Below are positions 44,786-64,000 of a DNA stretch of 64,000 nucleotides, in pieces. The stretch spans positions 448,001 through 512,000 of the forward strand of contig CAWHBU010000003.1 in assembly GCA_963827685.1 (NCBI GenBank), in the 5' to 3' direction. This stretch comes from an uncultured delta proteobacterium (GTDB lineage Bacteria > Desulfobacterota > BSN033 > UBA1163). The notes under the pieces are model-generated. The model did no database searches. It saw only the letters and a list, made by a program, of their open reading frames with translations, and was not told where the DNA came from. Both the position numbers and the translations under genes were made by a program. Within the stretch, counting starts at the first letter, position 1. The number at the start of each line of letters is the position of its first letter.

Positions 44786-45366
44786 TTTTCCTCCTATCTG
44801 TTTAAGAGTTAGTATAGTGAATCTCCTCCCGTAGAGCGGGAGGCATGCGGTAGCCCCCAAGAAGTTAGCTACCGCCATATTAGTAAAAAGCATACCTATT
44901 TTTATGAGTATGCTTATTGAGATCTGATCTGACAGTTTCGATTTTGGCTGCGATTTACGCTGAAAAAGCCCCAAAAATATAAAATTACGCAAAAACGTAA
45001 TGATAGCCGTTTCATTTTTCAAAACTTTCCGGACTGGTACTATTAGACAGCTATACGGGCCTACTTTATTTTGATTGCAAAATCTATTAGAAACGCAAGA
45101 AATATGCCAAGGGTTCGCTAATAATTAGTTGTTAGATAATAATTATTTTAAGAATATATTCAATAGATTATCTTATGAACCCATTGAAGAATTTATGGCA
45201 ATCCTCGGTTTTATTGATACAAAATTCCACATCGATTGACAAAAATGTCCCCGGTTCATTATTGCTCTTACAGCAGGAATCAGACCGGAGAGGGCTGTCG
45301 AGATGTGGGCAGTCCATGAATGCAGGAATTTTTTACAGAAGATGTATTAAGGGTTACTCAGGCAAG

Positions 45367-45428
45367 CCCCGTTAGAAATTCCAGTCGTTGCGACTCGAAA
45401 CCGAGCGGTCCATTATTTCTAACGGGGT
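45367..45428. mobile_element. MITE-like element (ACCCCGTTAGAAA family, short copy 3) inside the 125-bp repeat
   Basis: Same TIRs; interrupts the repeat copy at 45311-45473. Confidence 0.75.
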
Positions 45429-45645
45429 AAATCAAAATGAAAATATCACCCTCAAAAGATCGGAAGTGTTTGGTTGATGACCTCATCCTCCGTGACCCCA
45501 ATCTCCCTAACAAAATTCTTTATCAGAGCTTGAAACAAAGTTCTTCTTACATTATTATAGTGTTTTGAAAGACATGACCTTTACACGGATGAAATCGGTG
45601 GTATCCGTTTTCACCGGGATGAATGAAATTGCAGTCTACAGGTGA

Positions 45646-45764
45646 ACCCCGTTAGAAATTCCAGTCGTTGCGACTCGAAACCGAGCGGGGCATCAAACCC
45701 CCGCCGGAATTATTCTGGGACCTAACCACGCTGCAGAGCAGCGGGGCAACATTTCTAACGGGGT
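45646..45764. mobile_element. MITE-like element (ACCCCGTTAGAAA family, copy 4)
   Basis: Same TIRs; internal sequence similar to copy 1. Confidence 0.75.
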
Positions 45765-45779
45765 CAACAGGAGAAAAAG

Positions 45780-48360: not shown

Positions 48361-48431
48361 CTTCAGTGTTTTTCTGATCTAAAAACACTTTTTTGTCGCC
48401 GAACATATCTTCTTCTAAAACTCTTAGAAGT

Positions 48432-48635
48432 CTAACCAACAATCTTTACGTTTGAGGCTTGAGGGCCTTTAGGACCCTGTGTGGTTTCGAATTCAACCTC
48501 ATCCCCCTCTTTAAGGGACTTGAATCCCTCCCCTGTGATTGCCGAGTGGTGAACAAATACGTCCTTGCCGCTCTCCGGTGTAATAAATCCGAATCCCTTC
48601 TGATCGTTAAACCACTTCACTTTTCCTGTTGACAT
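48432..48635 (-). CDS. cspA: Cold-shock protein
   Basis: [29 protein letters not shown]. Confidence 0.95.
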
Positions 48636-48670
48636 AGTAACCTCCAAATAAAATGTTAGGGTTAAAATAA

Positions 48671-48835
48671 AAAACCCGTCAAAGAGGGAAACTCACTCTT
48701 TGCGGGCTTCCTTTTTTCGAAGCCCGCTTTTCACCAGAGATTTTGTTCTCTGGCTCTCTTACCATTCCTTCCTTCCAGGTTTTACCCTTTCTGGTTTTCC
48801 TAATAAGACCTGCGGGTTCCGAAATCTCAATCTAT
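48671..48835 (-). promoter_or_regulatory. Structured cspA 5' leader with terminator/antiterminator-like arrangement
   Basis: GCGGGCTTC/GAAGCCCGC stem overlaps the hairpin CCCGCAAAGAG...CTCTTTGACGGG-T6. Confidence 0.55.
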
Positions 48836-50045: not shown

Positions 50046-50369
50046 TTACGAAGGATATCGCCTGTCAAGGGCGGACCCCGAATCGACGCCGGGCAGCCTT
50101 CGGGTTTTTCTTCGATCGAGGACTTCAGCGAGAATAGGTAAAAGAAAGGAACCTCCGGGGAGAAAGAAGATAATCAGTGCTGGGATGATCTTCGCTATGT
50201 TTTTCAGATGCCTCTTTATCTCTTTTTTCTCTTCCCTTGTCCATTTCTCATCAGTGTTCCGGATTTTCATAAGAAGCTGCATCAGTCCCTTTATCGAAAG
50301 GACTTCCATGAGGATGGCTTCCTTATTTATAATGAACAGTCTTTTCAGATATCTCTTGATCATCGGCAA
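50046..50369 (-). CDS. Hypothetical protein
   Basis: GLMQLLMK.RNT..KWT.EE...IF.LPGG..LLP. Confidence 0.6.
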   Translation of the reverse strand: MPMIKRYLKRLFIINKEAILMEVLSIKGLMQLLMKIRNTDEKWTREEKKEIKRHLKNIAKIIPALIIFFLPGGSFLLPILAEVLDRRKTRRLPGVDSGSALDRRYPS

Positions 50370-50992
50370 ACCAGCTACAACGGCAGACGTCAGGTCGGGG
50401 TCAGACCTTGGTCTATTTTCTTAGCGTTTCCCTTTTCCACCAAATTCCGGGACGGTGTCAGAGCTACGCCGTCAATAGCTTCTCCACCTCTCCTTGAACG
50501 TCAGTCCGGTCCATTTACCCCCTGGTTTATCTCCACAAGCTTATGATGCAAAGAATTTATGGAAATTCTCCACAGAAGTCAACGATTATTTTTCGCAGTG
50601 CGTAAAATATTGAGGTTTAAGTATATCCTCTCAGCGTTCACCTTTTCCACTAAATCCTGCTAACATCGAAGACCTGATCCCTTTTTCACTCCACACATCA
50701 CTAAAATCTTCTGTCAAATTTCAAGGAATGGGACCATATACTTCTCTTCTGTCGAATAAATGTATGATTGCAAGACCTGATCCTTCTGTTCCAAGACCTG
50801 ATCCTCCCGTTCTCCCTGCTGGTAGTATTTTTAGAATAAATGTAGGAATCTTCTTTGAGATGTTGTATAAAAGTCCAGGGATACTAATAAAAAAACAACT
50901 TGTAACCTATCCAAACATAAGAAAAGCGCTCTGATAAATTAACTGAAATTTTATAGGCCATTTATGAAAAATGTTTTGGTACCCTGGTTTAT

Positions 50993-52147
50993 ATGACGGA
51001 GTTTGGAAATATGCCGTATAGACGATATGATTTGGACTGGTTGAAAGTTGGGGCGGTCTTGCTTCTGGTTCCCTACCATACTGCTATGATTTTTGTTTTA
51101 TGGCCATTCCACATCAAGAATCCAACCTTAAGCCCGGGGCTGACCGTTTTCAACGCATTTCTGCAGGCCTGGCATATGCCGCTGTTCTTTCTCCTTGCCG
51201 GGGCAGCTACCTGGTATGCTCTTGGCTACCGGAGCAGACGCACATACATCAGGGAAAGGCTTTTTCGGCTGGGGATCCCCCCTGGCTTTTGGGATACTGG
51301 CAATTATTCCGCCTCAAGTCTATGTGGAACGACTGTATCAACACCGCTTCAGCGGAACATATTTTCAATTCTACCCCAGCATTTTTACAACGGGCACTTA
51401 CCCGCATGGCAATTTAAGCTGGCATCATCTCTGGTTCATAGCATACCTTATCGTATTTTCCCTGCTGGCTCTTCCCCTTTTTCTGCGCCTGAAGGAGGGG
51501 ACCGGACAAGGAATAATGGTGCGCTGGACCTCTTACCTTGCGCAGGGGCGCCGCATATTTTTGCTCGCGCTCCCCCCCTAATGTTAATCCAAGCACTCTT
51601 AAGGATTCACTGGCCCCAGGGCAAAATGAACCTGACTAACGACTGGGCCAATTTTTTCTTTTATCTAACCTTGTTTGTCTATGGCTTCGTGCTCTGCTCC
51701 AATGATCGCCTCCGGGAGGCGGTTGTTCGTAACCGGTATATAGCACTTCCATTTGGTGTTATATGCTTTTTCTTTTTCCTGGCAACAAAGGACATCACCG
51801 GCAGTGAACCATGGTTGCGCTATAATGCCCGTGATATGGCGATTGTGGCTTTGCATGGTTTTAATACCTGGTGCTGGCTTCTCGTTATAATCGGATTGGG
51901 GATATCTTACCTTAATTTTACGAATAGGTTGCTGGCGTATTCCAACGAAGCCGCTTATCCTTTCTACGTACTGCATCAAACCATAATTTTAGTTCTGGGA
52001 TTCTATGTGGTGAACTTAGACTGGAGTATCTCCGCCAAATTCACCTTCATCATTGCGCTTTCTTTTTTGCTGACACTGCTTATCTATGAATCACTGGTGC
52101 GTAGAATCAAGCTGTTACGGTTTCTGCTCGGCATGAAGGCACGGTAA
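50993..52147 (+). CDS. Acyltransferase-3 (OpgC/MdoC-like) membrane protein with two compensating frameshifts
   Basis: RRYDLDWL, MPLFF, ER..RLGIP. The HHLWF segment is in the 51195 frame between C-runs at ~51277 and ~51572. YPFYVLHQ follows. Confidence 0.85.
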   Translation: MTEFGNMPYRRYDLDWLKVGAVLLLVPYHTAMIFVLWPFHIKNPTLSPGLTVFNAFLQAWHMPLFFLLAGAATWYALGYRSRRTYIRERLFRLGIPPGFWDTGNYSASSLCGTTVSTPLQRNIFSILPQHFYNGHLPAWQFKLASSLVHSIPYRIFPAGSSPFSAPEGGDRTRNNGALDLLPCAGAPHIFARAPPLMLIQALLRIHWPQGKMNLTNDWANFFFYLTLFVYGFVLCSNDRLREAVVRNRYIALPFGVICFFFFLATKDITGSEPWLRYNARDMAIVALHGFNTWCWLLVIIGLGISYLNFTNRLLAYSNEAAYPFYVLHQTIILVLGFYVVNLDWSISAKFTFIIALSFLLTLLIYESLVRRIKLLRFLLGMKAR

Positions 52148-52339
52148 ATAACCTTTAAGAGATTTCGGCTAATTCTTATTTCCAATTTTTTAAGAGAATG
52201 AAGATTATCTGGAGTAGAATTCCTGGAAGCGGTGACGGAAAGAGTTGAGGGGCTTTACGCGAAAAAGAGTTGGGATCTGATCTCAATTTTTAAAAGTACT
52301 TGTTGATTGTCGAGAGCCTGTTGGAAAACTCATTTTTTT

Positions 52340-52464
52340 CAGGCTGATCAAAAATGCCCAGATACAAGGCACCCGAAATCCTGAGGAATGAGGCGTACTT
52401 GAATGTACGCTGCAATGACGAAGGATGAGGGGAACGCGGCAGATGGGCGTTTTTCAACAGCCTG
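52340..52464. mobile_element. MITE-like element
   Basis: TIRs CAGGCTGATCAAAAATGCCCA / TGGGCGTTTTTCAACAGCCTG. Confidence 0.7.
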
Positions 52465-52545
52465 TTGAGAGCTGACCCTCAGTTCTCATTGCTAATTTTA
52501 GGTTTGACCTCGACCTTTCCAGAAGTTAAATCAGCAAGGGAACCG

Positions 52546-53268
52546 TCATGATAGCTGAATTTGGAAACTTTTCTCAAAGTCATCAAAGGATTTCGTAAGA
52601 ATCTCCTCCATATTGACGAGGAATTGTGTTACCAGCTGGGTGTTGACGAACGCATTCACGAAGGCATCGTTCTTACAAACCAAATTCAGCCGTTTTACTT
52701 GATTCGTGCTTGAGACTCTCAATTCTTCTCCAAATCTCTTAATCATCCCTTTAATCTCTTCGAGGTTCCCATTATGAAGCCAGTACATATTCAGGTAGAC
52801 TCTGGTGGCTACCTCTCTTCCGCCCATAATCGGGATAATACCATAATAATACTTCCAGTATTTTTGCAACACCAGGTTATACCGCAATAAACTTAGGATA
52901 GAAACGTATTTGAGGGCATCCTGCATCGTTGTTGCCCTGACATGCACCAATTTGTCTTCATTCCCTTTGTACACGGCTATGATCTTGTCATAAGAGACGT
53001 ACTGATCGACAATATCCAAGAATGGAAGCATGGGTCTTATCGAATCGCAAATGTCTTCTTCATTTTTGTGCGGGCAAAAGTAGCATTTTTGGAAATCAAT
53101 GGCTTTTCTCTTATCCTCGGGTATTTTTGTAAGGTCCTGCCAATAACTATCCGTGACCTTTTCGATATTCTCTTTCGTAAGTTCTAACCTTGTTGAATCC
53201 GGGAAAAGGAGATAAAGCCCTTCCTTTTCAAAATCGCTCAGCCTCAAATCTAATATTCTATCTTCCAT
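52546..53268 (-). CDS. Hypothetical protein with Cys cluster (C..CPH.....C)
   Basis: AGGAGG RBS before ATG 53268. Confidence 0.7.
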   Translation of the reverse strand: MEDRILDLRLSDFEKEGLYLLFPDSTRLELTKENIEKVTDSYWQDLTKIPEDKRKAIDFQKCYFCPHKNEEDICDSIRPMLPFLDIVDQYVSYDKIIAVYKGNEDKLVHVRATTMQDALKYVSILSLLRYNLVLQKYWKYYYGIIPIMGGREVATRVYLNMYWLHNGNLEEIKGMIKRFGEELRVSSTNQVKRLNLVCKNDAFVNAFVNTQLVTQFLVNMEEILTKSFDDFEKSFQIQLS

Positions 53269-53395
53269 GATTCCTCCTTGTCTCTTACCGGAAATAGGGG
53301 AACGCAGGTCCTGAAACATTTCCCCCCAACAAGGCTAATTTCGCAGCGTTCACCTTTTCCACCAAATTCCGCTAACATTGAAGACCTGATCCTGA

Positions 53396-53830
53396 TCAGA
53401 AATCATTATACATTTTTAGAAAATCGGATGCCTTGATGATTTTTGTAGATTTATATTGTTTCAAATCGAACAAATCCTTATCACCACTCACAATATAGTC
53501 TGCAGATCCTGAAATGGCACACGAAATGAACTTGTCATCTTCAGGATCTCTGCATATTCCCTTAACATCTTTAACCACCTCCACAATCTCGAAATATGGG
53601 AGAATCTCATATTTGATAATGGAGTCTGTCTCTTCTTGAGTGAGAGAGAACTTAGGGTATTCGAGAACGGTTACTAACTCACTAAATGTTTCTTTTGAAA
53701 TGACAGGGATAATCTTTCCCTTCTGCCACAGCCCGACGATCTTTGACAGTCCCCCTCTGAAGAGCAAAGCGGATACCAAGACATTCGTATCCAGCACAAC
53801 CCTTTTTACCTGTTTTTCCTTCTTGCCCAC
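53396..53830 (-). CDS. PIN-domain toxin
   Basis: VVLDTNVLVSA, CRDPEDDKF, IVSGDKDL. Confidence 0.92.
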   Translation of the reverse strand: MGKKEKQVKRVVLDTNVLVSALLFRGGLSKIVGLWQKGKIIPVISKETFSELVTVLEYPKFSLTQEETDSIIKYEILPYFEIVEVVKDVKGICRDPEDDKFISCAISGSADYIVSGDKDLFDLKQYKSTKIIKASDFLKMYNDF

Positions 53831-54045
53831 CGAATGGCCTCACCGACGTCTTTTTCATTAATCCCCAGCCTTCTCATTTTCTCTCTCACACTTTCAATAC
53901 CCGATCCCATAGGCGATATCTTGACCGGCATCAAAAGGATTTTGTCATCCTGGATGCGGACATCAAAATATTGAGCATCAGGAAAGGCGTTGACGACCGC
54001 CTTGGGTAACGTAATTTGATTCTTGGATGTTTTTTTGGCAAGCAT
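53806..54045 (-). CDS. AbrB/MazE-like antitoxin
   Basis: MLAKKTSKNQITLPK; overlaps the PIN gene. Confidence 0.88.
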   Translation of the reverse strand: MLAKKTSKNQITLPKAVVNAFPDAQYFDVRIQDDKILLMPVKISPMGSGIESVREKMRRLGINEKDVGEAIRWARRKNR

Positions 54046-54259
54046 ACTTCCTTACCTCCTTACAATAAGGATACCTTACTTATCTGAAATTTTCAACAAC
54101 TATTTTTCAGGCTCACCAAAGCCTAAAGAGAGGATAAACACCGGCCCGGCAGGCCACCTCCACCCTGTTCGGAAGAATCAGAGGCACTAACTCAAAAAAT
54201 GCGATGTCTCCCTGCTTTTAGAAACGAATAAAGAAGGTGAAATACGACTCCGTCCCCAA

Positions 54260-54655
54260 CTACTGAGATTTAACAATTATTTGGTCGGGGCCACGGACAA
54301 TAATTTCAGGCTTCCCACGGTAGCTTTCTATGACACCGGTGACGCAAATCCTTTTCGCCTTAAAAAATGTCTCTGGAGGATTCTTAAACTTATTCCTGTC
54401 AGATCCCCAAATGAGAACCGTAAAAATTTGGTTTGGGTATGGTTGATCAAGATTTAGAAAAGTAGGTCGTCCTTTGCTTCGAACTGCATAGGTGGTACTC
54501 GCTACCGTCCCACAAACTGTTTTCTCCATCCCAATATATTTGTGGGCATCTATTGGATTGACGTACTCTTGTTGAGCAATAGAGGTAGATGCACAAACTA
54601 AAAACGCAAGAATTAGGAGTATAAAATAGGCGAGGGATTTGATAGACTTCCTCAT
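54260..54655 (-). CDS. Exported OB-fold protein
   Basis: Signal peptide; TVCG.V, TFLNL..PYPNQ.F...IW, Y.GKPEI. Confidence 0.8.
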   Translation of the reverse strand: MRKSIKSLAYFILLILAFLVCASTSIAQQEYVNPIDAHKYIGMEKTVCGTVASTTYAVRSKGRPTFLNLDQPYPNQIFTVLIWGSDRNKFKNPPETFFKAKRICVTGVIESYRGKPEIIVRGPDQIIVKSQ

Positions 54656-54988
54656 CGGTATATCTCCAAATTCATAGCTCTCCGTGTAGGCTCAATGTGG
54701 GTCTCTCACCCCATCTCGCAAGATCCGCCGTAGTCCTTTAGCGGTCACCTTTTCCACCAAATTCCGCCAAGGATTTAATTACCGTGGGGCTTCACCCTTT
54801 GACAAGTAGTTGTTGATTGTTGGGGGACCTGACCCTTTCCCCTATTCGATGATTTCCTTTTTTCCATTGCTCCCTCCTTTCGGCCATTAACGTGCCCTAA
54901 GTAACGTCTGCTAATCCATTTACTCTGACCAGCCCTGTGTTAAGGGCTGACCCCAAGTCTTCCGGAAGGTCGCCTTCTTGATGAATGG

Positions 54989-56305
54989 CTACATTTCCGT
55001 AATCCACTTCTTTCCCTGTTTTTGAACTCCTCCTGCCATCGCTTTGAGAAATGAGGATCGGAGTATGTCACTCATAAGAATCGCCTTCACCGGTGGAAGT
55101 CTCAAGAATCCCCCTACAAAGCCTCGCATGAATTTCTGGGTGATACTTTGAGGATTATCGAATATCTGGTTCTGAAGTGTTCCCCTCTCCAGGCTTTGTA
55201 GAATGACCCGTTCAAACGTGGTTTCCGGATGGAGAACCCGTTTTTCCCGTTTTACCAGAGTGACCGCACCGGTACTGCAGCTTAAGGCACATACGCCGCA
55301 TCCGAGGCAAATAGAGGTATCGATAATAGCATCTTTTTTCTTCTTGGTTTGTGGGTGATCTATCGGAATCATCTGAATCGCATCGATCGGACAGGCCTTC
55401 GCACACTTTCCACAGCCGAGACAGGCGTCAGGATTGTTCTTGGCGAGAAAGTTGGAAGTGACCACCGTATTCGGGTAACCGAATTTGCTGATCCCCGCGA
55501 GAGCATTGCAGCAGTCCTTACAGCAGTGACAGATAAAGGTTACATTTCTTTTTATATTGTCTGCACAGAGCACGAGCTTCATCTCTACGGACTGTGCCAG
55601 GTTTTCCAGCATCTCGGATTTGGAAACCTCTTTTGCCAGTTTGTTCCTGATCAGGTAGTCTGCAGCGAAATTAAAAGAAGAACACTTTTCCAGAGGAATA
55701 TCACACTCCTTTTCACCTATGTGTAATTTTTCATGGCGGCATGAACATATCCCAATTGAAAACTTCTCAGAGGATTCAACAATGCCGGCAGCCTTTTCGT
55801 AATCCAGAACCTCTATATACTCCGACGCGTCAATAGCCTCCCAGTGAGGCAGCGCACGGATAACGGAGACCTTATCGCCTTTCTTCGCGTTCATTGCATA
55901 AAGTTCTCCATTGTTAGCGTTCAGATATTGGTGAAATAGATGCGCCAGTGCTTTGGAATCAACGCCCTCCCCTGTTCGCATCATACTAAACTCAAAAATA
56001 CCGATCATAATCGGCGAAGGCATGTAGTGATAGGCGTCATTGGCCCAAAAGTCGATCACGAGACCTTTTGAGCACAAACTCTCGAGGATCTTTTGAAGTT
56101 CTGAGCTTTCGTATTTTGTCACCTGCGCGATACGATTGAGGTCGGACATGCCGTACGGCATTTTCACAACCACATCCGCTTCCTTTTCGGAATAAAGACT
56201 TTTTAAGAGCTCGTAAAACGCCTCATTCCAGGGAGCCCTGAGAGGTAGATTATCGATCTTCGTTCCCAACCTTCGAAAAATCTCTTTACCGTCTGCATGT
56301 CCCAT
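54989..56305 (-). CDS. 4Fe-4S dicluster domain protein
   Basis: C.CRH, ICHCC.DCC, CLGCGKCAKACP, CLGCGVCALSC. Confidence 0.88.
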   Translation of the reverse strand: MGHADGKEIFRRLGTKIDNLPLRAPWNEAFYELLKSLYSEKEADVVVKMPYGMSDLNRIAQVTKYESSELQKILESLCSKGLVIDFWANDAYHYMPSPIMIGIFEFSMMRTGEGVDSKALAHLFHQYLNANNGELYAMNAKKGDKVSVIRALPHWEAIDASEYIEVLDYEKAAGIVESSEKFSIGICSCRHEKLHIGEKECDIPLEKCSSFNFAADYLIRNKLAKEVSKSEMLENLAQSVEMKLVLCADNIKRNVTFICHCCKDCCNALAGISKFGYPNTVVTSNFLAKNNPDACLGCGKCAKACPIDAIQMIPIDHPQTKKKKDAIIDTSICLGCGVCALSCSTGAVTLVKREKRVLHPETTFERVILQSLERGTLQNQIFDNPQSITQKFMRGFVGGFLRLPPVKAILMSDILRSSFLKAMAGGVQKQGKKWITEM

Positions 56306-56487
56306 ATCCAAGCTCCTTTCTCGCCGAGGTTCCTCTCATAATGCGGGCCAACTCTATTTTCTTAGCGTTCACCTTTTCCAGCAAATTCTGCTGACATTTA
56401 AGATCTGAGCCTGTGTTTTGGCACTTTAGATTTCAAAAAGTTATTTCAGGTTTCGAGGCCTAAGACTTTAACCCTTTTTCGAAAAAA

Positions 56488-57264
56488 TCAAACGGGGCTT
56501 TTCCATCTTTCGTAATTCCAATCAGACTTCATTTCATCTTGGTGGGACTTACAATACTCAATACCGGCATCGGTAAGAAAAATCTGCCCATTTTCAAGAT
56601 TAATATCTACCAACCCATGAAGCATCGCCAGTTTTGCACCTGAAGCATAGATTGGATAGTTAGGATTGAGAGATCCTACTGCAAAAGTCCATATTCTAGG
56701 GTAATATTGTTGCTGATGATTCCAAAGAGTTGATAAGACCTTTAATGCATCCTGTGTGATCTCCAGTTCCTTTTTGTTTTCTGGTTCCTTTTCCTCCATC
56801 GCCGTTATGATACCTTCCTCCCTCATGAAATCCTCTGTATTCACCTTTATTTTCTGCATGCGGGGAATCCCCAGATGCGTTTCAACTACCCTTTTCTCTT
56901 TATCAATGATTGGTTCCGGTTTTTGACCCACTCCCCAGAATACAAGATTTGTCTGTTGAGTAACTTGGTTCTTAATACTGATTGAAAGCATATCAGACCT
57001 CAAATTGATTATCTGCTCTTTCATTTCCGATTTGAGAGAATCGACTTCCTTTTTCAGTTTGATACCAAAAATGTCAATCTCCTGAAAGAGTGGCAGAAGA
57101 AGCAAACAAATCCAGATTACAAAGATAAAAACATCCACTGAAGTAGTTGATCCCAGTTTAAAAGCAGGGAAACCGAAAATTGCATAGATTAAACCAAGCG
57201 TAACTAATATTCCCCACCAAATATTTTTGAATTTAATATTTTTAAACTTATCCGATAATTTCAT
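56488..57264 (-). CDS. Hypothetical 2-TM protein; start codon separated from its RBS by IS630
   Basis: True start is probably MKLSDKF at 57264; the longer ORF extends into IS630. Confidence 0.7.
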   Translation of the reverse strand: MKLSDKFKNIKFKNIWWGILVTLGLIYAIFGFPAFKLGSTTSVDVFIFVIWICLLLLPLFQEIDIFGIKLKKEVDSLKSEMKEQIINLRSDMLSISIKNQVTQQTNLVFWGVGQKPEPIIDKEKRVVETHLGIPRMQKIKVNTEDFMREEGIITAMEEKEPENKKELEITQDALKVLSTLWNHQQQYYPRIWTFAVGSLNPNYPIYASGAKLAMLHGLVDINLENGQIFLTDAGIEYCKSHQDEMKSDWNYERWKSPV

Positions 57265-57269
57265 ATCTA

Positions 57270-58374
57270 ATACAAACGCATTAAGTAATGTTACATAGCC
57301 TACGAATCTTTTGACAAGACCATGAGCGAGTTGTTTTACAAACGACAGACCAAAGATTATCAAGGTTTTCAAACCAACGGTTGGTGGTGGATTCATAGCG
57401 AACACTGCGCCAAATCCGTTCTTGCACGTTTAATCCCGGTTGATACGGGGGTAAATATTCGATATGGAGCCTCGGATGTTTTTTAAGAAATTGTTCGATG
57501 GGATCGCCTCTGTGCCAGCGGGCCCTGTCGACATAAAGCCAAATGGTATATTCTTTAAACCTTCCATAGAGGTGGCGCAAAAGTTTGAGAAACCCTTCTC
57601 TATCCCCCCGTTTTGTCTGAATCATGCCATAGCGTCCAAGCAAAGGATTGACCCACCCAGAGATATTCAAACGGATACGATGCTGGCTGGTCGTGGGAAT
57701 CTTAAGACGCTTTCCTTTTTTCGCCCAGCCCCGGCTAAGCCTGGGGTGCATCGTAAAGCCTGTCTCATCCTGGAATACAATTGTCTCTTTTGGCCCCAGG
57801 GACTCAAGTTTTTTTTAAAGCCCGCTGGAACTTTCGGGCTTCTTGGCTTTGTGCTTGAAGATAAGAATAACTCGCTCTCTTTAACCGATAACCCAAATGA
57901 TGCATCCAGCGTTGGGCTTGCCGCACCTTCAGGTTTATCCCGAAAGACCGTTTCAGATGAATCGCAACCGTTGGCCCATCCCATTGAGTCCGGTTTAAAC
58001 CAAATTCCCGCGGAGACTTCTCTAAGTGTCCCTCCAGCACCCTTTGAATCTTTGTCTCTAACCGTGGAGGCCTTCCCGATCTTGGCTTGGATTTTAAGAA
58101 CTCTAAGCCGTCTTTGTTCACCCCGTGAATCCATCGGCTTAAACTCATCCGGGTCAACCCTAACACCTCGGTTATCCATCCCGGACGTTGCCCTTCAAGC
58201 ACCAGGAGTAAGGCGGCTATCTTTATGCCTATCCAAGCCCCTGATATTTGTTCGGCTAATGCTAATAAACGCTCTTTATTGGCCTCTTTATGCTCTAAGA
58301 TTAATGTGGGATTTTTCATGCCCACATATTAACATAAATAAACTGTTATGTCACTTTATTTAGGACGTTTGTAT
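57270..58374 (-). mobile_element. IS630-family insertion sequence
   Basis: TIRs ATACAAACG.../...CGTTTGTAT with TA flanks; HTH ORF and DDE ORF. Confidence 0.9.
57281..58325 (-). CDS. IS630 transposase, two ORFs joined by a -1 frameshift at TTAAAAAAAAC (~57808-57818)
   Basis: ORF1 has RSGRPP and a winged HTH; ORF2 has VDRARWH and LPPYQPGLNVQERIW. Confidence 0.88.
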
Positions 58375-58605
58375 TAATATCCTCTTAGATTAGAATAAGT
58401 ATACAAAAACACGGCGTCACGCCTTGAAATGTGAATTAATTTAATTCACAAGTCTCAAAATGACCTAATAGAGGTCAACTCCATTTTCTTGCCGTTCACC
58501 TTTCCCACCAAATTCTACTAACATTGAAGACCTGATCCTGCATTCGCTCCACAGTCCAATAAAAACTTCTGTCAAATTTCAAGACCAGGCACCAGTTACT
58601 TCCAG

Positions 58606-58665
58606 TTACTTTGAATGGCTATTTGTTTCAATGTCAATGGCGACAAACTCATTTGATTTTGTCAT
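58606..58665 (-). pseudogene. N-terminal stub of a DEDD 3'-5' exonuclease
   Basis: MTKSNEFVAIDIET (ExoI motif), ending next to the repeat at 58594. Confidence 0.55.
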
Positions 58666-58677
58666 ACTTTATGCGTT

Positions 58678-60102
58678 CTAGCTTCGCAAAATTTCTTTTA
58701 ACCCAGTCATTATCACATGCATCGCCATGACGTCATCTTCATTGTACTGGAGAATTTTAGTGAAAAGAGTTTTGTCCTTAGTTTTTAACCACTCGTCATA
58801 CCACGCTTCTGAATTAGAACCACTGGCATCCTCAGCCCGCCATTTAAACCCAAAGACGGGAGCTACTTCTTTTATGCTGAAGGTAGTGACAGGAAGGGCG
58901 AGGGCTTCTTTCACGACTTCTTTAAGATCGACAAATTGCTTCAACATGCGACTGATGGCCTTTTCATGTTTTGGATAACGCTCGGCCATGGAGCTTATCC
59001 AGCCGATTTCAAATGTGGTCCAGGTATAAATCACAGCATCAAGGTGATGGCTTAAAAAGGAAAGCAACTCGATCAGAACCTTTTCCTCATCCTCGATTGC
59101 TTGTGCTGCAAATTGCCTGACTTCGGTTTTTTTACCATTGTCTATGAAGAGACCGTGTAAATAAAGCGTTTGTCCATAGGTCTCGATGTCATAGTAAATG
59201 ATGGTCTGTCGTTCTGGGGGAAGCTTTACTTTAGCTTTCAGCAGTGGCTTATTAGTATGCCAGGCCCTGGCGTTGAGATGAATTTCATTGGCCAGATCTT
59301 GCTTAAGATCAAATTTGTTTGCTATCTGGTTTGGAGTGAGCTTAACCAAGCGATCATAAGTGGCAACACCGCCATCGATCAGCTTCCGCACGAGACGAGA
59401 GTTCATTCCAGACAAAACCGTTACCAACTTCTGGTCTTTGCGATCCGAGTCACAGTGGTCACTCCATGGGCAATTGCCACACTCAGAACAGCGTAGTGGC
59501 AGGGTTGAAACCTCCCTTTTTTCAACAGATAAAGCTTGTGCAAGTGCAGCTTTGATTTTGGTGATCTCAGAGTCAAGGTCAACACCAGCCCGGCTTTGAT
59601 CCTTTAAAATAATGGCCCCATCAAGAGGCATGAATCCTAACGCCTCTTGTAGCATGAAGGAATAAGCCGCAAGTTGAAGTTTGTCCTTAAACGTGACCTT
59701 TGCGTGTGATTTAATGTCAACGGGGCTATATGAAAATGACCCTAGCTTAGATTTCCTCTTTGTTTTCTCCAGTAAGTCTGGCAGACCGAATGTACGTCCG
59801 TTCTTCAGAACACCTTTATAAATTAGGGGCGCACACTTTCGCATGAGCTCCAGGGTAGGCTCGATGCCTTCCCACGGTTTGTCTTCGGGATACTCGGGTT
59901 GCACGACTTTGAGTTTTGCTATGACTTCGTCTTCGTGTACAATCCCCGCATCCATGCGAAGCTGTGCTCCGGCATCGGGCTCTGTTACTAAAGTGGCGTC
60001 GCCAAAACACTGCAAATGCCAAAAGTGAGCACAGGTATGAATGCGCGCGAGAGCGCTGGCACTAATAAGTGATTCACCTGGTTTTTTTACGGTTATTGAC
60101 AT
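58678..60102 (-). CDS. TM0106-family RecB-like nuclease with RNase H-like C-terminal domain
   Basis: G.PDLL, Y.PVDIK, QLAAY, C..CPW..HC, YYDIET, FVDL, SIK.VA...GF.WR, YNEDDV. Confidence 0.85.
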   Translation of the reverse strand: MSITVKKPGESLISASALARIHTCAHFWHLQCFGDATLVTEPDAGAQLRMDAGIVHEDEVIAKLKVVQPEYPEDKPWEGIEPTLELMRKCAPLIYKGVLKNGRTFGLPDLLEKTKRKSKLGSFSYSPVDIKSHAKVTFKDKLQLAAYSFMLQEALGFMPLDGAIILKDQSRAGVDLDSEITKIKAALAQALSVEKREVSTLPLRCSECGNCPWSDHCDSDRKDQKLVTVLSGMNSRLVRKLIDGGVATYDRLVKLTPNQIANKFDLKQDLANEIHLNARAWHTNKPLLKAKVKLPPERQTIIYYDIETYGQTLYLHGLFIDNGKKTEVRQFAAQAIEDEEKVLIELLSFLSHHLDAVIYTWTTFEIGWISSMAERYPKHEKAISRMLKQFVDLKEVVKEALALPVTTFSIKEVAPVFGFKWRAEDASGSNSEAWYDEWLKTKDKTLFTKILQYNEDDVMAMHVIMTGLKEILRS

Positions 60103-60376
60103 AACTTGCCCGTTTCGAATTTTACCTGAGCATATTCGAGCTGCATATACTCGGAGGATAGGTACCCATAACGGCATCTCAGGTCACTGATTTCAGGTTA
60201 AACAAGGGGGGCGGCCCTAATTACAAAGAGAGCCGCCTCCCTCAACCTTCATTGGGCGACATTCAAGTTTGCAATGTCGCCAGATGCATTTTCTTAGCGT
60301 TCAACTTCTCCATCAAATTCTGCTAGCATTGAAGACCTGCCCATAGATTCGCTCCACACTTCAATAAAATCTTCTG

Positions 60377-60589
60377 TCAATTTTCAAGGCCAGGCACCAT
60401 TTGGGATAGTACAATGCCTCTTGGAAAAAGCTTTTTTGCCAAATTGGTGACTTCATTTCCCTGGTCGAGGATGAACTTGGTTGCCTCATCCGCTTCTGGT
60501 ATTTCTCCCGGTTCGTTGAAAACAAACCATAACAATTTGGGGCACTGCAAACCATTCATATATTTGGATTTTGAGATTACTTTATGCAT
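60377..60589 (-). pseudogene. Truncated DUF2779-like nuclease N-terminus
   Basis: ISKSKYMNGLQCPKLLW...QGNEV..LA..LFP.G, then runs into the repeat, which supplies the stop. Confidence 0.7.
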
Positions 60590-60660: not shown

Positions 60661-60876
60661 CTAACCAACTTTCTGATATGAAAAACCAACAGACTTGATG
60701 TTTTGATGAAAATAGGTCCCTTTGGATGATGCATTCATCAAACCATCATAGATGTCTTGAGAGACTCCAAAGTATTGGTAAATCCCGCCATGGTTGAACT
60801 CTATCTCCAATGTTAGACTTTCAGCATCATAACCAACAGAAGCCAAATTACTCGACTGGACTGGAATACGTTCCAT
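60661..60876 (-). CDS. KTSC domain protein
   Basis: V.SSNL.SVGYD....LEIEF..G.IYQY..V....Y..LM.A.SKG.YF. Confidence 0.92.
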   Translation of the reverse strand: MERIPVQSSNLASVGYDAESLTLEIEFNHGGIYQYFGVSQDIYDGLMNASSKGTYFHQNIKSVGFSYQKVG

Positions 60877-60881
60877 TTGCG

Positions 60882-62687
60882 TTATCCTCCTTTTTTCTCA
60901 AGGGATACCGTGCGCTGCCGTCGCCAGCCAGTAACAGCCTTGTCGTATGGAGGGATTTTGACACGTTTACCTTTCCACCGTTTGGCTGGTTCAGGATCGT
61001 CGCTCTTCGGTCGTGGTTCGACAAGAGGCAGCCTTATCCGGCTTGGGATCTGGACCGCTTCGCCCAATACAAGGGCTTCACCTGTGCGCAATGCTGGAAG
61101 AAGATCTATCAAACCAGCAAGTGCATCAGGCACTGTGGACCTAACCCGGCCTTGATCGTCCGGGTTAGAAAGGCGAAGGGCAAAAAAAGTACCGCACTGG
61201 GAAAGTATAGTTTCATCAAGTTCGGATGGACGCTGACTCACAACAATGGCACCAACCCCATATTTTCTGCCTTCTTTTAGGACCCGACGTACGGATTTCC
61301 CCGCATACCCAGAGACGAATTGGCCCGATCCACCTTTAGGTAAATAAGAATGGGCCTCCTCATAAATGATGAGAAGTGGACGTTGCCTGCCGATCGAGGG
61401 TAAATCCCGTCCCCAGAACATGCATTCGAAAAGTACTCGTGTCACAACGCCAACAACGAGATCTGTTACCTCAGGAGGGACACCGCCAAGATCAAGAACG
61501 GTGATGGGGTCCGCATGATTGATCCACTCTGAAAGTAAATCGTTGAGGTCTTTTTTCACTCCGTCAAATTGCCCTGGATTTAGCAAAAAATCAAATCTTC
61601 TGTCCCTCAAGCGCCCCAGGACTTTGTTCAAGTATGATGCTAGTCCAACAGCCTTCTGGGTTTTGAATGGCGACGAAGCACCAGCTCCGGGTGGTTCAAA
61701 CTGAGGTGGAATCGCATCTTGTGCGCTTCCCGTCAGTTCCCTGCCATTCTTGTCCTTCTTGAATGCTATAGTGGTCCAATCGTCTTTCAGTCTGAGAGTA
61801 GCATGCTCTGCGGTATAGAATTCGTACCACATTGCTCTAAGGTCGAATGGAACTGGTGAATCAACTGTTATATCGTTTGTATTAATCGAACACGCCTTTA
61901 AATTTGCACAGGATCCGCGTTTGAGCTCAAATATGCGGTCTCTGAGTATTATGTCTTGCTGGCTTTCCGATGCTGTGCGTCTATCCACCAGGAACCAGCC
62001 AAGCTCATCAAAGGATAGAGCCCAGAATGGTATGAGTAAAGGATCCTTTGCGTCACCTATCGAGAAAACGCGCGCCTGCCCCTTAAGTGCGGCACCATAT
62101 TCCCCATGAGGATCGATCACCACCACCTGCGCGCTCGGGAAAACACCGCTGGTTATCGCTTTCAAGAAAGCAGCTACTGTATTAGATTTGCCGCTTCCAG
62201 TAGAACCAAGGATTGCCATATGTCTAGTCACGACTTTGTCCAGATCTATGGTTGCAGGCAGGCTTTCTGATGCGGCATGAGTTCCTATTTGTATCATAGA
62301 GGGAGAGAGCGAACCATATATTAGTGCGATATCCTCTTCCGTAACGACATGAACTTCGTCGTCTAGAGTTGGAAACACGCTTATACCACGTTGGAACCCC
62401 TCCTGACCATACGCCTCACCAACAAGTTGAACCTCTATCCACCTTTGCCCGGGTGGCGGAACAAACTCAAGTTCATCTGGTGGTGATTCCGAAGCTCCGA
62501 CCATTGAGACAACTCCGTATAAATTTAAAAAACCCAAGGGTATTCTAACAAATGAACCGACCTGCCCTAGCCTATAGACTCTTCCATGAATAATGGGGGA
62601 AACCGACATCTCAGATGAGATTCCAACAAAAACTTTGGCCCCCACTACACGGCGAACCGAACCTAGAAAGGTAGGCTGTGTCTTCAT
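60882..62687 (-). CDS. herA: HerA-like ATPase (DUF87)
   Basis: HAS-barrel-like N-terminus, RHMAILGSTGSGKS, IDPHGEY, EEAH, KEGRKYG, VSQRPSE. Confidence 0.92.
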   Translation of the reverse strand: MKTQPTFLGSVRRVVGAKVFVGISSEMSVSPIIHGRVYRLGQVGSFVRIPLGFLNLYGVVSMVGASESPPDELEFVPPPGQRWIEVQLVGEAYGQEGFQRGISVFPTLDDEVHVVTEEDIALIYGSLSPSMIQIGTHAASESLPATIDLDKVVTRHMAILGSTGSGKSNTVAAFLKAITSGVFPSAQVVVIDPHGEYGAALKGQARVFSIGDAKDPLLIPFWALSFDELGWFLVDRRTASESQQDIILRDRIFELKRGSCANLKACSINTNDITVDSPVPFDLRAMWYEFYTAEHATLRLKDDWTTIAFKKDKNGRELTGSAQDAIPPQFEPPGAGASSPFKTQKAVGLASYLNKVLGRLRDRRFDFLLNPGQFDGVKKDLNDLLSEWINHADPITVLDLGGVPPEVTDLVVGVVTRVLFECMFWGRDLPSIGRQRPLLIIYEEAHSYLPKGGSGQFVSGYAGKSVRRVLKEGRKYGVGAIVVSQRPSELDETILSQCGTFFALRLSNPDDQGRVRSTVPDALAGLIDLLPALRTGEALVLGEAVQIPSRIRLPLVEPRPKSDDPEPAKRWKGKRVKIPPYDKAVTGWRRQRTVSLEKKGG

Positions 62688-63928
62688 GTTTTTGAACCCC
62701 TTTGAATAGTCTCGGCAGACTCCTTGCTTATAGTGGTGGGAGAGACAGCAGCTTCCAGAACTGGACGGAACCCGATGAATAGCTCAAGAAAAGACGCAAA
62801 ATTGTTAAAGTCACCGAGAGTAAATTGTTTTCGGCTATCATCCCAGAAGGGCCAAATTTCTTCTTCTTTCTTTGCTCTGCTGGGTCCACCCCATGAGCCT
62901 ACAAGACCACCGATGCATGCCCTATCCGTACCATACACAGCAAAGTTTCGAAGTTCTTGGCCTAGCCGTATAAGATTCTCTTGTGGAGCAGAATGGCAGA
63001 ACACTGTGACGGCCAAATCGGGGTTTGAGCGAAGACCCTGAAAAATAATTTCATTGAGGTGTTGGTCACCGAAGCTATAACCAATTACAACCATAAGACA
63101 TGAGCTATAGGAAACAAACCTCCGGAGACGGTCTTGAAATGTAAGAAAAGGTAGTTTACGTGACTGTGTGTACTTCTCGCGGGATGGAAATATTACGAGT
63201 TCGCTCCCAACCGGAGTATTAGAACCAGAACTTCGAGATATCCTTGTCGGATTCCCATTTTGAGAATCAGAGATGTACCAATTAATAGATCCATGGAGTT
63301 TCCACAGCCGAGTCCAAGTTTTCGGTGGGTAGACAGATTGGGAATGCTTGGATGGCTCGGCTTCAACTGACTCAGGTACGAAGAACGGAGTGACGGACCC
63401 TATAAAGCCATCGAAAAAAGGTACAGAGAAGTTTTCCATCGACTTCTCTAATAAGAGGTCATAGTTTGTTGTGAAAAGCTCCACTGGCCAGTCACGATGA
63501 CTTCGAAGCTGTTGCAACCACTGTGCAAAAATGGCATGTGGTATCGGCTCTTGTGGGGAGGTATCATCTACGATGCGACGCATAGCTTGACAAATCTGTT
63601 TGTCGAGCTCTCTGGCAGCTTTAGCCCCAATGAGGCATCCGTACTGTCTATCTTCATTGTTTCCAAAAAGTTCACGGCAAATGCGAATATGGTCAAGAAT
63701 ATTCTCAACATTGGGATTCTTTATTCCCAACTCGGCTTTGACTTTCGAGAATTGTGTTTTGAATGGGTCGACAAGATGTCCCTCAACCCGTTCCGTTAAT
63801 TTTGTAATTCCAGGCAACCCAACTGCCATAGACGTGCCGGCGCCGAGGAAAAATGCTAATCTCCTTTCAGCAGGCGCTAGTTGCTCTCGTAGCTCATAAG
63901 CTTCGCGTAGCGGGTCATGAGAAGCCAT
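62684..63928 (-). CDS. SIR2-like (SIR2_2) NADase, Sir2-HerA defence partner
   Basis: FFLGAGTS, FTTNYD, KLHGSINW, IGYSFGDQH; 4-bp overlap with herA. Confidence 0.92.
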   Translation of the reverse strand: MASHDPLREAYELREQLAPAERRLAFFLGAGTSMAVGLPGITKLTERVEGHLVDPFKTQFSKVKAELGIKNPNVENILDHIRICRELFGNNEDRQYGCLIGAKAARELDKQICQAMRRIVDDTSPQEPIPHAIFAQWLQQLRSHRDWPVELFTTNYDLLLEKSMENFSVPFFDGFIGSVTPFFVPESVEAEPSKHSQSVYPPKTWTRLWKLHGSINWYISDSQNGNPTRISRSSGSNTPVGSELVIFPSREKYTQSRKLPFLTFQDRLRRFVSYSSCLMVVIGYSFGDQHLNEIIFQGLRSNPDLAVTVFCHSAPQENLIRLGQELRNFAVYGTDRACIGGLVGSWGGPSRAKKEEEIWPFWDDSRKQFTLGDFNNFASFLELFIGFRPVLEAAVSPTTISKESAETIQRGSKT

Positions 63929-64000
63929 TAGACAAAGACCTCCTTTTTCTATTGTCAAAATTCAAACCGGATTTATATTCCCAAAGGGACGAGTCCGTAG

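Follow-up and report, generated by a model that had tools for sequence, protein, structure and literature searches.

Can a short repeat that stands between unrelated genes mark the joints of a gene-capture system other than an integron? To our knowledge, only one system for storing and reshuffling single-gene cassettes is well understood, the integron, which depends on the integrase IntI and on folded attC sites. The question is raised by a stretch of 64,000 nucleotides (C3:448,001-512,000 of genome G000; the window), in which a repeat unit separates blocks of unrelated cargo genes. The full unit is ~165 nt long, consists of a 56-nt extension (ext) and a 67-bp core, and is read here on the minus strand of the window. 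G000, called the own genome below, is a metagenome-assembled genome (MAG) of an uncultured syntrophic deltaproteobacterium, of 5.23 Mb in 14 contigs, with a completeness of 94.5% and a contamination of 8%. All genomes compared with it are MAGs as well, namely 54 others of its family of Syntrophaceae-type bacteria (55 with the own genome) and 13 control genomes from two sister families. G-, L- and C-numbers denote genomes, loci and contigs, respectively. An earlier note on this DNA (the original prediction) proposed a cassette-like array in which the repeat is the junction where unrelated blocks were joined. Our comparison upholds this proposal: cassettes shared by related genomes stand there in different orders, and their homology ends at the unit.

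Seven co-oriented copies had been described in the window. A repeat search recovered them at 84-100% identity (at 50423, 50633, 53345, 54740, 56364, 58491 and 60296), and the ~55 nt of extra sequence noted on three copies appeared as a 116-nt repeat family at 50624, 58482 and 60287; the CCAGGCACCA end was present on the plus strand in two of these three extended copies, as stated before. A profile of the seven window copies gave 13 matches in the 5.23-Mb genome (E <= 4.4e-4), all on the plus strand and all within C3:498,397-524,927, and its next-best match elsewhere in the own genome had an E value of only 1.6. A longer profile found the same 13 copies plus one weak match on C9 (E 0.01). The copy number and the clustering are far from chance. 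Since the 13 matches reach C3:524,927, the array continues for ~13 kb beyond the window end and measures ~26.6 kb in all, from C3:498,397 to C3:524,985. The earlier reading was thus right about the copies in the window, but only half of the array was seen and the unit was read opposite to the gene strand. From the first to the last copy, 21 of the 28 non-overlapping open reading frames (ORFs) of at least 70 aa lie on the minus strand, and two of the seven on the plus strand come from insertion sequences (ISs); the minus strand was therefore taken as the functional orientation of the unit. Start-to-start spacing ranges from 210 to 7,447 nt. Five of the 13 copies are full-length, and the remainder are shortened at the 5' side and retain the 3' part. 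Copy 12 bears an insertion of ~80 nt, in common with G015.

The own array was compared with the arrays of five relatives at the nucleotide and protein levels, which revealed common blocks in changed order, among them a 257-aa gene, a 131-aa gene, emfourin, a 107-aa gene and a 209-aa family. In G010 the cassette of an iron-sulfur (Fe-S) protein is followed by a CAAX protease cassette, while 12 kb separate the two in the own genome. The Fe-S cassette is common to the own genome, G010, G015, G011 and L101, each time with different neighbours, and is also present in L067; the nucleotide identity of the gene is 84-88% among the own genome, G010 and G015. The CAAX protease cassette is shared by the own genome, G010, G026, G034 and G004, and an abhydrolase cassette is shared by L101 and L090. 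In all five genomes, homology of the CAAX cassette sets in precisely at the 5' edge of the ext that precedes it, and the DNA before this edge differs in all five. Downstream of this cassette a type-B variant of the core is found in four of the five genomes, irrespective of the next cassette, and the abhydrolase gene has the same 3' tail and ext behind it in both genomes. Homology specific to the Fe-S gene begins past the unit 3' end (..CATTAT/GAGAGG, the slash marking the border) in five contexts, in two of which an extra promoter-like module of 190 nt stands at the border between the unit and the gene. These patterns of the CAAX, abhydrolase and Fe-S cassettes indicate that the unit acts as the 3' end of the upstream cassette, with exchange at or near the unit 3' end, which is the logic of attC.

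A candidate for the place of entry was seen beside the 107-aa gene, a conserved gene at the array tail with homologues of ~100 aa in 18 of the 55 family genomes. In G004, G005 and G010, the stop codon of a DUF4124 gene is followed by a 30-nt spacer, GGGAAAGGGAAGCGGTAAGAAAACAGACCG, and then by the ATG of the 107-aa gene, and this spacer is identical to the right half of the unit, GGAAAAGGTGAACGCTAAGAAAATAGACC, at 22 of 29 positions. The same place is filled by a unit or an array in the own genome, G034, G015, G011, G003 and G069 and, in degenerate form, in G002; in G006 and G012 it holds an ORF-less insert of ~105 nt that has a partial copy of the shared segment on its left and a full one on its right. 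Upstream of the 107-aa gene, five further genomes have unrelated DNA. The shared segment is ~29 nt long and corresponds to no 3' end of a tRNA or protein gene. Judged from these alignments, the spacer between DUF4124 and the 107-aa gene looks like an attB/attI-like site in empty and occupied states. The DUF4124 gene of the own genome lies at C3:434,289-434,954 without the spacer behind its stop codon, so that a rearrangement has split it from the array at exactly the spacer point. Derivation of the unit from the 3' end of the DUF4124 gene was considered and rejected, as neither the C-terminus nor the flank of the own gene is related to the unit. An insertion site in the flanks of the own array was also discarded: five genomes of the same genus have nothing that corresponds to the right flank (5 kb), and the left one has undergone rearrangement. 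Commonly, arrays have a divergent kdsB upstream and PIN, PHP, DUF4124 and the 107-aa gene downstream, followed by an FrhB/POR operon and an aminotransferase. A second context lies between asd and secDF.

What kind of element is the unit? On the minus strand the ext reads TGGTGCCTGGYCTTGAAAYTTGACAGAAGATTTTATTGAAGTGTGGAGCGAAT, and the core is a dyad of layout 11-6-6-21-6-6-11, that is, GGATCAGGTCT / TCAATG / TTAGCG / GAATTTGGTGGAAAAGGTGAA / CGCTAA / GAAAAT / AGACTTGACCC, usually with CCATTA directly after it. The start of the ext is a degenerate direct copy of the left half-site of the core (17 of 31 positions identical by eye), so that each unit holds two direct motifs and one inverted motif of the GGRTCARGTCT type. 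The unit is non-coding, with stops in all six frames; a leader peptide on the minus strand (MLAEFGGKGER and a stop) was rejected because its ATG is lost in several copies and changes fall on second codon positions. The 5' edge is sharp (consensus TAA/nTGGTGCC), and ahead of it the copies have no related sequence. Among 83 unit matches in the own genome and its relatives, the profile match starts at position 30 or earlier in 28, at 68-82 in 18 and at 85-113 in 33, and ends at position 141 or later in 52; in seven copies that consist of the ext only, the end is at or before position 86. The 3' end typically lies 20-70 nt upstream of the next start codon. An origin of the CCAGGCACCA end from tRNA or tmRNA was dismissed, since the 50 tRNA and tmRNA genes of the genome give only chance matches of 8-11 nt and the vicinity of the array contains no tRNA gene.

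The two nested inverted repeats of the original prediction are present in the consensus, but in none of the seven window copies are both inner arms perfect. Over 43 units taken from many genomes, 72.9% of the cells in the consensus inverted repeats pair, versus 28-46% when the partners are slid. Compensatory change was not detected in these 43 units: pairing is 72.3 +/- 0.7% when the 3' letters are shuffled, 113 of 500 shuffles reach the observed value, and the covariation score is 0.209 compared with 0.203 in shuffles. Folding of single-stranded DNA (four units on both strands, eight folds) gave z-scores between -2.13 and +1.60. With pairing and covariation at the level of shuffles and unremarkable folds, the hairpin proposed as a selected structure is not supported. 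Because the variation is not compensatory, the symmetry of the core looks like the layout of a protein-binding site in double-stranded DNA and not like a folded substrate of the attC, REP (repetitive extragenic palindrome) or IS200 type. Rfam gave no match at E <= 1 in the array and none at E <= 0.1 in its continuation. Sites resembling promoters of the sigma-70 type numbered 21, versus 18.4 +/- 4.2 in shuffles, which is the level of chance, and only one of the seven window units was flagged.

The unit is widespread in the family. A 24-mer of the core (up to 3 mismatches) was found in 25 of the 54 other family genomes, representing 9 of 21 genera, and in none of the 13 genomes of the two sister families; a control with the reversed pattern gave no match anywhere. 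The matches in relatives are clustered and co-oriented on each contig, as are the own copies, 13 of 13 of which share one locus and one strand, and no credible dispersed or opposite-strand copy exists in the own genome. The array is therefore not part of a genome-wide family of REPs or miniature inverted-repeat transposable elements (MITEs), in agreement with the original prediction. An exact 23-mer scan of one genome for each of 185,579 species yielded 22 stretches, and the titles of the records name Thermodesulfobacteriota, 'delta proteobacterium', Syntrophaceae or Syntrophorhabdus MAGs with one exception, a Clostridia MAG with a chance-like match of 24 nt only. Viral contigs (searched with two patterns) and plasmids had no match to the unit. 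The densest array, L099, has nine units within 7.3 kb and single small genes between them.

Parts of the stretch are also present in 20 public metagenome runs of 11 studies, and contigs from three DNA runs and one RNA run were aligned to it. These contigs are mostly shorter than 1.2 kb, which is too short to follow the gain or loss of whole cassettes at the strain level, and parts of the stretch that they leave uncovered provide no evidence. In wetland and sediment metagenomes, many short contigs have the unit fused to other sequence. Loose ends occur at 54771, 56353 and 60399, together with 'joints' between different unit copies; nine contigs diverge from the stretch at 54771 and six behind 60399. 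This shows that many more contexts of the unit exist in nature.

We lean, tentatively, towards an IntI-independent, site-specific cassette platform that would be served in trans by a putative recombinase encoded elsewhere. A little more guardedly still, we suggest that Syntrophaceae-type bacteria may have a second, IntI-independent capture system composed of a sequence-defined site of ~165 bp with three putative recombinase-binding motifs at the 3' end of cassettes that lack an integrase, a chromosomal entry site between two conserved genes and a trans-acting recombinase. Since no recombinase domain was found at the arrays, this mechanism is drawn from anatomy and comparative behaviour. In each cassette, a short 5' leader precedes one or a few genes, which are followed by a 3' tail and the unit of ~165 nt. 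The unit would take the role of attC, standing at the 3' end of the cassette, co-oriented with the genes, with exchange at or near its own 3' end, and the 30-nt spacer between DUF4124 and the 107-aa gene would be the chromosomal entry site in the manner of attB or attI. A recombinase encoded elsewhere might bind the GGRTCARGTCT-type motifs, two direct and one inverted per unit, and might join circular cassettes to an existing site, so that cassettes could be integrated, excised and reordered. A literature search over titles and the beginnings of abstracts returned only ordinary integron papers and, within that compass, no description of such arrays.

Several points weigh against such a platform. 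Among ~360 ORFs in and around ~30 array loci, no tyrosine or serine recombinase domain was found; the mobile-element proteins at the arrays are only IS transposases (DDE_3, DDE_Tnp_1_6 and IS66) and one group II intron reverse transcriptase. No serine recombinase of the Resolvase family was found in the own genome, and of its 19 tyrosine-recombinase matches none lies less than 250 kb from the array. A tyrosine recombinase of ~200 aa, present as three paralogues, was considered as the enzyme and rejected, as it occurs in only seven of the 55 genomes and is unlinked to arrays. The breakpoints lie at the ext 5' edge, at the border of ext and core, immediately ahead of GGAATTTGG and behind AATAGA and CATTA, and such scattered breakpoints fit homologous recombination or decay as well as a site-specific enzyme. 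Gene fusions without a unit were also seen, joining the Fe-S gene to the 131-aa (OB) gene in G010 and to the abhydrolase gene in L101. Finally, a single entry site cannot explain all arrays, because the contexts are several (kdsB, PHP/DUF4124 and asd-secDF). The absences among these points are weak evidence, since all genomes are MAGs and the own genome is 94.5% complete with 8% contamination. As an observation apart, the three ~200-aa tyrosine recombinases consist of the catalytic domain only (C4:172548-173156, C6:132834-133430 and C2:692523-693119).

It is possible, though in our judgement rather unlikely, that no dedicated recombinase exists and that the unit is a conserved functional element between the genes of a hypervariable island, such as a transcription, processivity or protein-binding signal. 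In that case, shuffling would result incidentally from homologous recombination between copies of 40-165 nt, including recombination after uptake of foreign DNA. The conservation of sequence and not of structure is as expected of a protein-binding site in double-stranded DNA, no recombinase is linked to any array, breakpoints fall at several places along the unit, and the unit lies mostly 20-70 nt ahead of the next start codon. Exchange of this kind also has a precedent, since natural transformation is reported to drive cassette shuffling in chromosomal integrons (PMC12614218). On the other hand, the units show no consistent sigma-70-type promoter and no Rfam match, a separate promoter module sits between unit and gene in two genomes, and the cargo genes are unrelated in function. 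A simple regulatory element would not be expected to have a sharp 5' edge with cut-off ORFs or an attB-like native spacer, and the longest identical stretch between units is ~37 nt, which is short for efficient RecA recombination. We regard it as improbable that the unit is a non-autonomous, MITE-like element with short imperfect terminal inverted repeats that inserts preferentially beside earlier copies. Both ends are indeed sharp, the left one often TAA-n-TGGTGCC and the right one ..CCCCCATTA, so that the two ends read TAAnTGGKG as inverted copies, flanked by TA; moreover, a given pair of genes may have a unit or part-unit between them in one genome and none in another. Against this stand the strict clustering and co-orientation of copies, none of them dispersed, and the failure to find an empty site with a clean target duplication, a transposase-bearing parent element or any match in viral contigs or plasmids. 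An IS630-family element inside unit copy 12 was considered as the parent and rejected, because its ends (TAGTATCTA...) are unrelated to those of the unit; it is an independent insertion and has five copies.

Could the unit simply be a strongly diverged attC, and the arrays be clusters of attC sites lacking an integrase (CALINs), served in trans by the integron integrases of the family? The integron-like organisation and cargo would agree with this, IntI (TIGR02249) exceeds the curated cut-off in 21 of the 55 family genomes and has left a C-terminal remnant in the own genome, and GTTAGCG of the unit is identical at six of seven positions to GTTAGCC, the R' of the real attCs of the family. Yet the 28 loci around IntI genes contained no units (best match E 0.54), and the genuine attCs beside these genes have the canonical form (GCCTAAC...GTTAGCC), which the unit does not resemble. 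Among array-bearing genomes 8 of 25 have IntI, versus 13 of 29 among array-free ones, and in all eight it lies on a contig other than that of the array. The motif order of the unit, GTTAGCG ... CGCTAAG, is the reverse of that of attC, in which R'' (RYYYAAC) precedes R' (GTTRRRY), and inspection, made without an attC covariance model, revealed no R''...R' on either strand. With the order reversed, no structural covariation and IntI unlinked, we consider this explanation quite improbable; the original prediction had likewise held that the repeat is not an integron attC, and its exclusion of CRISPR stands as well. It had instead suggested an HUH enzyme (Y1/RAYT) that acts in trans, nicks a hairpin junction and joins arbitrary DNA to the repeat. 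The two ORFs amputated at the unit 5' edge and the many IS200/IS605 TnpA copies in the genome can be cited for this idea, which we find hardly credible. A hairpin under selection is not supported. The 25 Y1 matches of the genome all lie elsewhere, the nearest at C3:933,286 and none within 400 kb; they are IS200/IS605 TnpA copies, 21 of them identical, and no single-copy RAYT-like gene stands beside the repeats. Y2 was not found in the genome. More generally, the expected linkage to a recombinase or Y1/RAYT gene failed to appear, as no such gene lies in or beside the arrays examined. The repeat is not dispersed as REPs are, and the GGGGTCAG-type motif, to which importance had been attached, occurs 186 times genome-wide versus ~160 expected, about the frequency of chance.

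The only IntI sequence of the own genome is a C-terminal remnant of 141 aa, 258 kb from the array (L003:1492-1797; C3:782,919-783,275). It scores 191 bits over model positions 197-315 and lies beside Phd/ParE-type toxin-antitoxin genes. Situated between ligA and a rarA-like gene, this locus has the appearance of a decayed integron.

The arrays share much with sedentary chromosomal integrons and CALINs. Both are co-oriented arrays of mostly promoter-less, unrelated accessory genes, with one recombination-type element at the 3' end of each cassette and with a cassette order that varies between related genomes; toxin-antitoxin and defence cargo, ORF-less cassettes and a conserved chromosomal location are also common to both. 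They differ in that no IntI stands beside any array examined and no statistical link to IntI exists, and in that the element is kept in sequence and not in fold, without the R''/L''/L'/R' layout. The element here also has a greater length (~165 nt) and a modular build, in which 11-nt motifs recur in direct and inverted form, and some cassettes are multi-gene and reach 7 kb. In island accretion at one att site (staphylococcal cassette chromosome (SCC) at rlmH, tRNA-linked arrays), the native site likewise shares a segment with the junction, the junction is empty or occupied depending on the genome, and direct repeats are co-oriented. Here, however, no unit-bounded block contains an integrase, blocks may measure no more than 0.4-1.5 kb and hold one gene, and the shared segment is not a tRNA or protein-gene 3' end. 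Xer modules (pdif of Acinetobacter plasmids, integrative mobile elements exploiting Xer (IMEX) at dif) are also integrase-less, have a short bounding site and rely on a recombinase encoded elsewhere, which is what we suppose here. Their pdif sites, however, alternate in orientation and have 28 bp in an 11-6-11 layout, whereas the unit keeps one orientation and has a core of 67 bp with an asymmetric centre of 21 nt. Sites of the Xer/dif type generally measure 28-31 bp, with two arms of 11 bp around a centre of 6-8 bp, and the arms around the 21-nt centre of the core are inverted ones of 11 and 6 nt; by eye, no dif-like XerD arm was seen in the unit, and no dif model was run. REPs, bacterial interspersed mosaic elements (BIMEs) and MITEs are similarly short, modular extragenic repeats with inverted-repeat motifs between genes. 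REPs and MITEs are dispersed in both orientations, whereas all 13 copies here share one locus and one orientation.

The arrays represent an integron-type genome architecture on a different kind of site, sequence-defined and with no linked enzyme, in hosts that are environmentally abundant strict anaerobes. If a dedicated recombinase exists, this would be a new, tool-like site-specific system and a new route for the spread of defence and accessory genes through anoxic sediments. Without such an enzyme, the arrays would reveal to what extent conserved intergenic 'portable homology' by itself can produce the behaviour of an integron.

The features of the array region in the window are listed in Table 1. 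Most cargo calls of the original prediction were confirmed by family searches (Acyl_transf_3, PIN_3 with a weak MazE/AbrB match, Fer4, the TM0106 nuclease, KTSC, HerA and SIR2_2), but its 'OB-fold' protein has no family match. Over all arrays, the cargo comprises toxin-antitoxin pairs, OLD/Gabija-like, Mrr, TIR, HerA-SIR2 and GNAT genes and many genes without assignment, and is of the integron or defence-island type.

Table 1. Units, cargo genes and insertions of the array region, with positions in the window
Feature	Position	Strand	Basis
107-aa gene, small protein like the LETM1 C-terminal domain	50046..50369	-	NF040639 positions 306-379
Unit copy 1, right half of core only	50410..50449	-	nhmmer profile positions 98-137, E 5e-6
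Promoter-like module TTGACT-17-TAAATT, between units 2 and 1	50554..50582	-	promoter scan, sequence comparison
Unit copy 2, full length (ext + core)	50604..50754	-	nhmmer positions 3-156, E 6e-39
Acyltransferase, strand opposite to most cargo	50993..52147	+	PF01757, E 6e-20
257-aa protein; homologue in G026:C9, 85% aa identity	52546..53319	-	protein comparison
Unit copy 3, core only	53312..53394	-	nhmmer positions 75-157, E 3e-16
PIN_3 toxin and small antitoxin-like gene	53396..54045	-	PF13470, E 9e-24; weak MazE match
131-aa protein, without family match	54260..54655	-	family search
Unit copy 4, partial core	54738..54771	-	profile match; alignment
Fe-S (2x4Fe-4S) protein, 440 aa	54989..56311	-	domain search, genome comparison
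Unit copy 5, core and degenerate ext	56343..56461	-	nhmmer positions 28-145, E 2e-15
305-aa ORF, without family match; 5' end overlaps IS insertion	56488..57405	-	domain search
IS-like insertion, 1.1 kb, outside the system; 13 genome copies	57267..58378	+	blastn 99-100% identity
Unit copy 6, full length	58461..58610	-	nhmmer positions 5-157, E 1e-41
19-codon ORF, start of a presumed DEDD-type exonuclease gene, cut at unit 6 5' edge	58606..58665	-	sequence
TM0106-family RecB-like nuclease	58678..60177	-	TIGR03491, E 1e-79
Unit copy 7, full length	60268..60416	-	nhmmer positions 4-149, E 2e-40
63-codon N-terminal gene fragment running into unit 7 5' edge	60401..60589	-	sequence
KTSC, HerA, SIR2 defence-type block	60661..63958	-	PF13619, PF01935, PF13289

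Unit copy 1 is the array tail and lies immediately upstream of the 107-aa gene. Copy 4 is contained in an insert of ~325 nt between the Fe-S and 131-aa genes, which is missing in G010. The module TTGACT-17-TAAATT also precedes the Fe-S gene in G015 and G011. The KTSC-HerA-SIR2 block sits in a unit-free interval of 7.4 kb that reaches past the window end.

Two ORFs are amputated at the 5' edge of a unit, as had been reported, but the 'DUF2779-like' identity given to the 63-codon fragment was not confirmed: it has no Pfam match at E <= 0.1 and only weak Cas4/PD-(D/E)XK leads (scores 0.77-0.83). The 19-codon ORF we take to be the start of a DEDD-type (ExoI) exonuclease, an assumption made from its ..FVAIDIETN.. 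motif. The neighbouring TM0106 gene was found in none of 60 related genomes. In metagenomes it occurs at seven loci, and one of them, L106 (93% identical), has the same junction of truncated ORF and unit; the other TM0106 metagenome loci have neither a unit nor an intact downstream exonuclease. Because the junction recurs in L106, it is inherited with its TM0106 cassette. The cut-off ORFs show that the unit 5' edge was joined to unrelated DNA by illegitimate events.

The 'transposase remnants' of the original prediction proved to be two intact IS insertions. At both borders of the IS-like insertion at 57267..58378, metagenome contigs have loose ends. This element carries an ORF of 299 aa (57464-58363, plus strand) without a Pfam or NCBIfam match and is very deep in wetland metagenome contigs; it may represent an undescribed transposase family. 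The IS630-family (DDE_3) element inside unit copy 12, beyond the window (L001:12044-13170; C3:522,044-523,170), has five genome copies. It stands between tandem duplicates of a protealysin (M4 peptidase) gene with an emfourin inhibitor gene (L001:10515-11899 and L001:13348-14780), each behind its own unit. Inside the array of G026:C9 lies a reverse transcriptase of the group II intron type (L033:16269-17744), which recalls that group IIC introns target integron attC sites.

Other repeats and small elements were noted on or near the locus. An element of ~150 nt with inverted ends at 52313-52466 has 3-4 genome copies at 88% identity and no Rfam match; in two wetland metagenomes the contig depth over it adds up to more than 3000, and contigs have loose ends at either border. 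Two short repeats at 45361-45440 and 45640-45770 have dozens of copies in each of five same-genus genomes and may be a dispersed family of the REP/MITE type, unlike the array unit. At 48381-48702 (minus strand), ahead of a cold-shock-domain gene (48432-48647), a 5' untranslated region resembles the cspA thermoregulator (RF01766, 38 bits, below the gathering score of 78) and has a partial tandem duplicate 471 nt away. Beyond the window, the minus strand of L002:1230-1890 (C3:531,230-531,890) encodes two paralogous ORFs of 13-15 codons (MKRSYQKMPWQWLWL and MKRSFQKMLWQKL, each ending in a stop) with a hairpin after each. A sigma-54-like motif, TGGCAC-N5-TTGC, lies upstream of these short ORFs, and the region is kept in G010 and G026.

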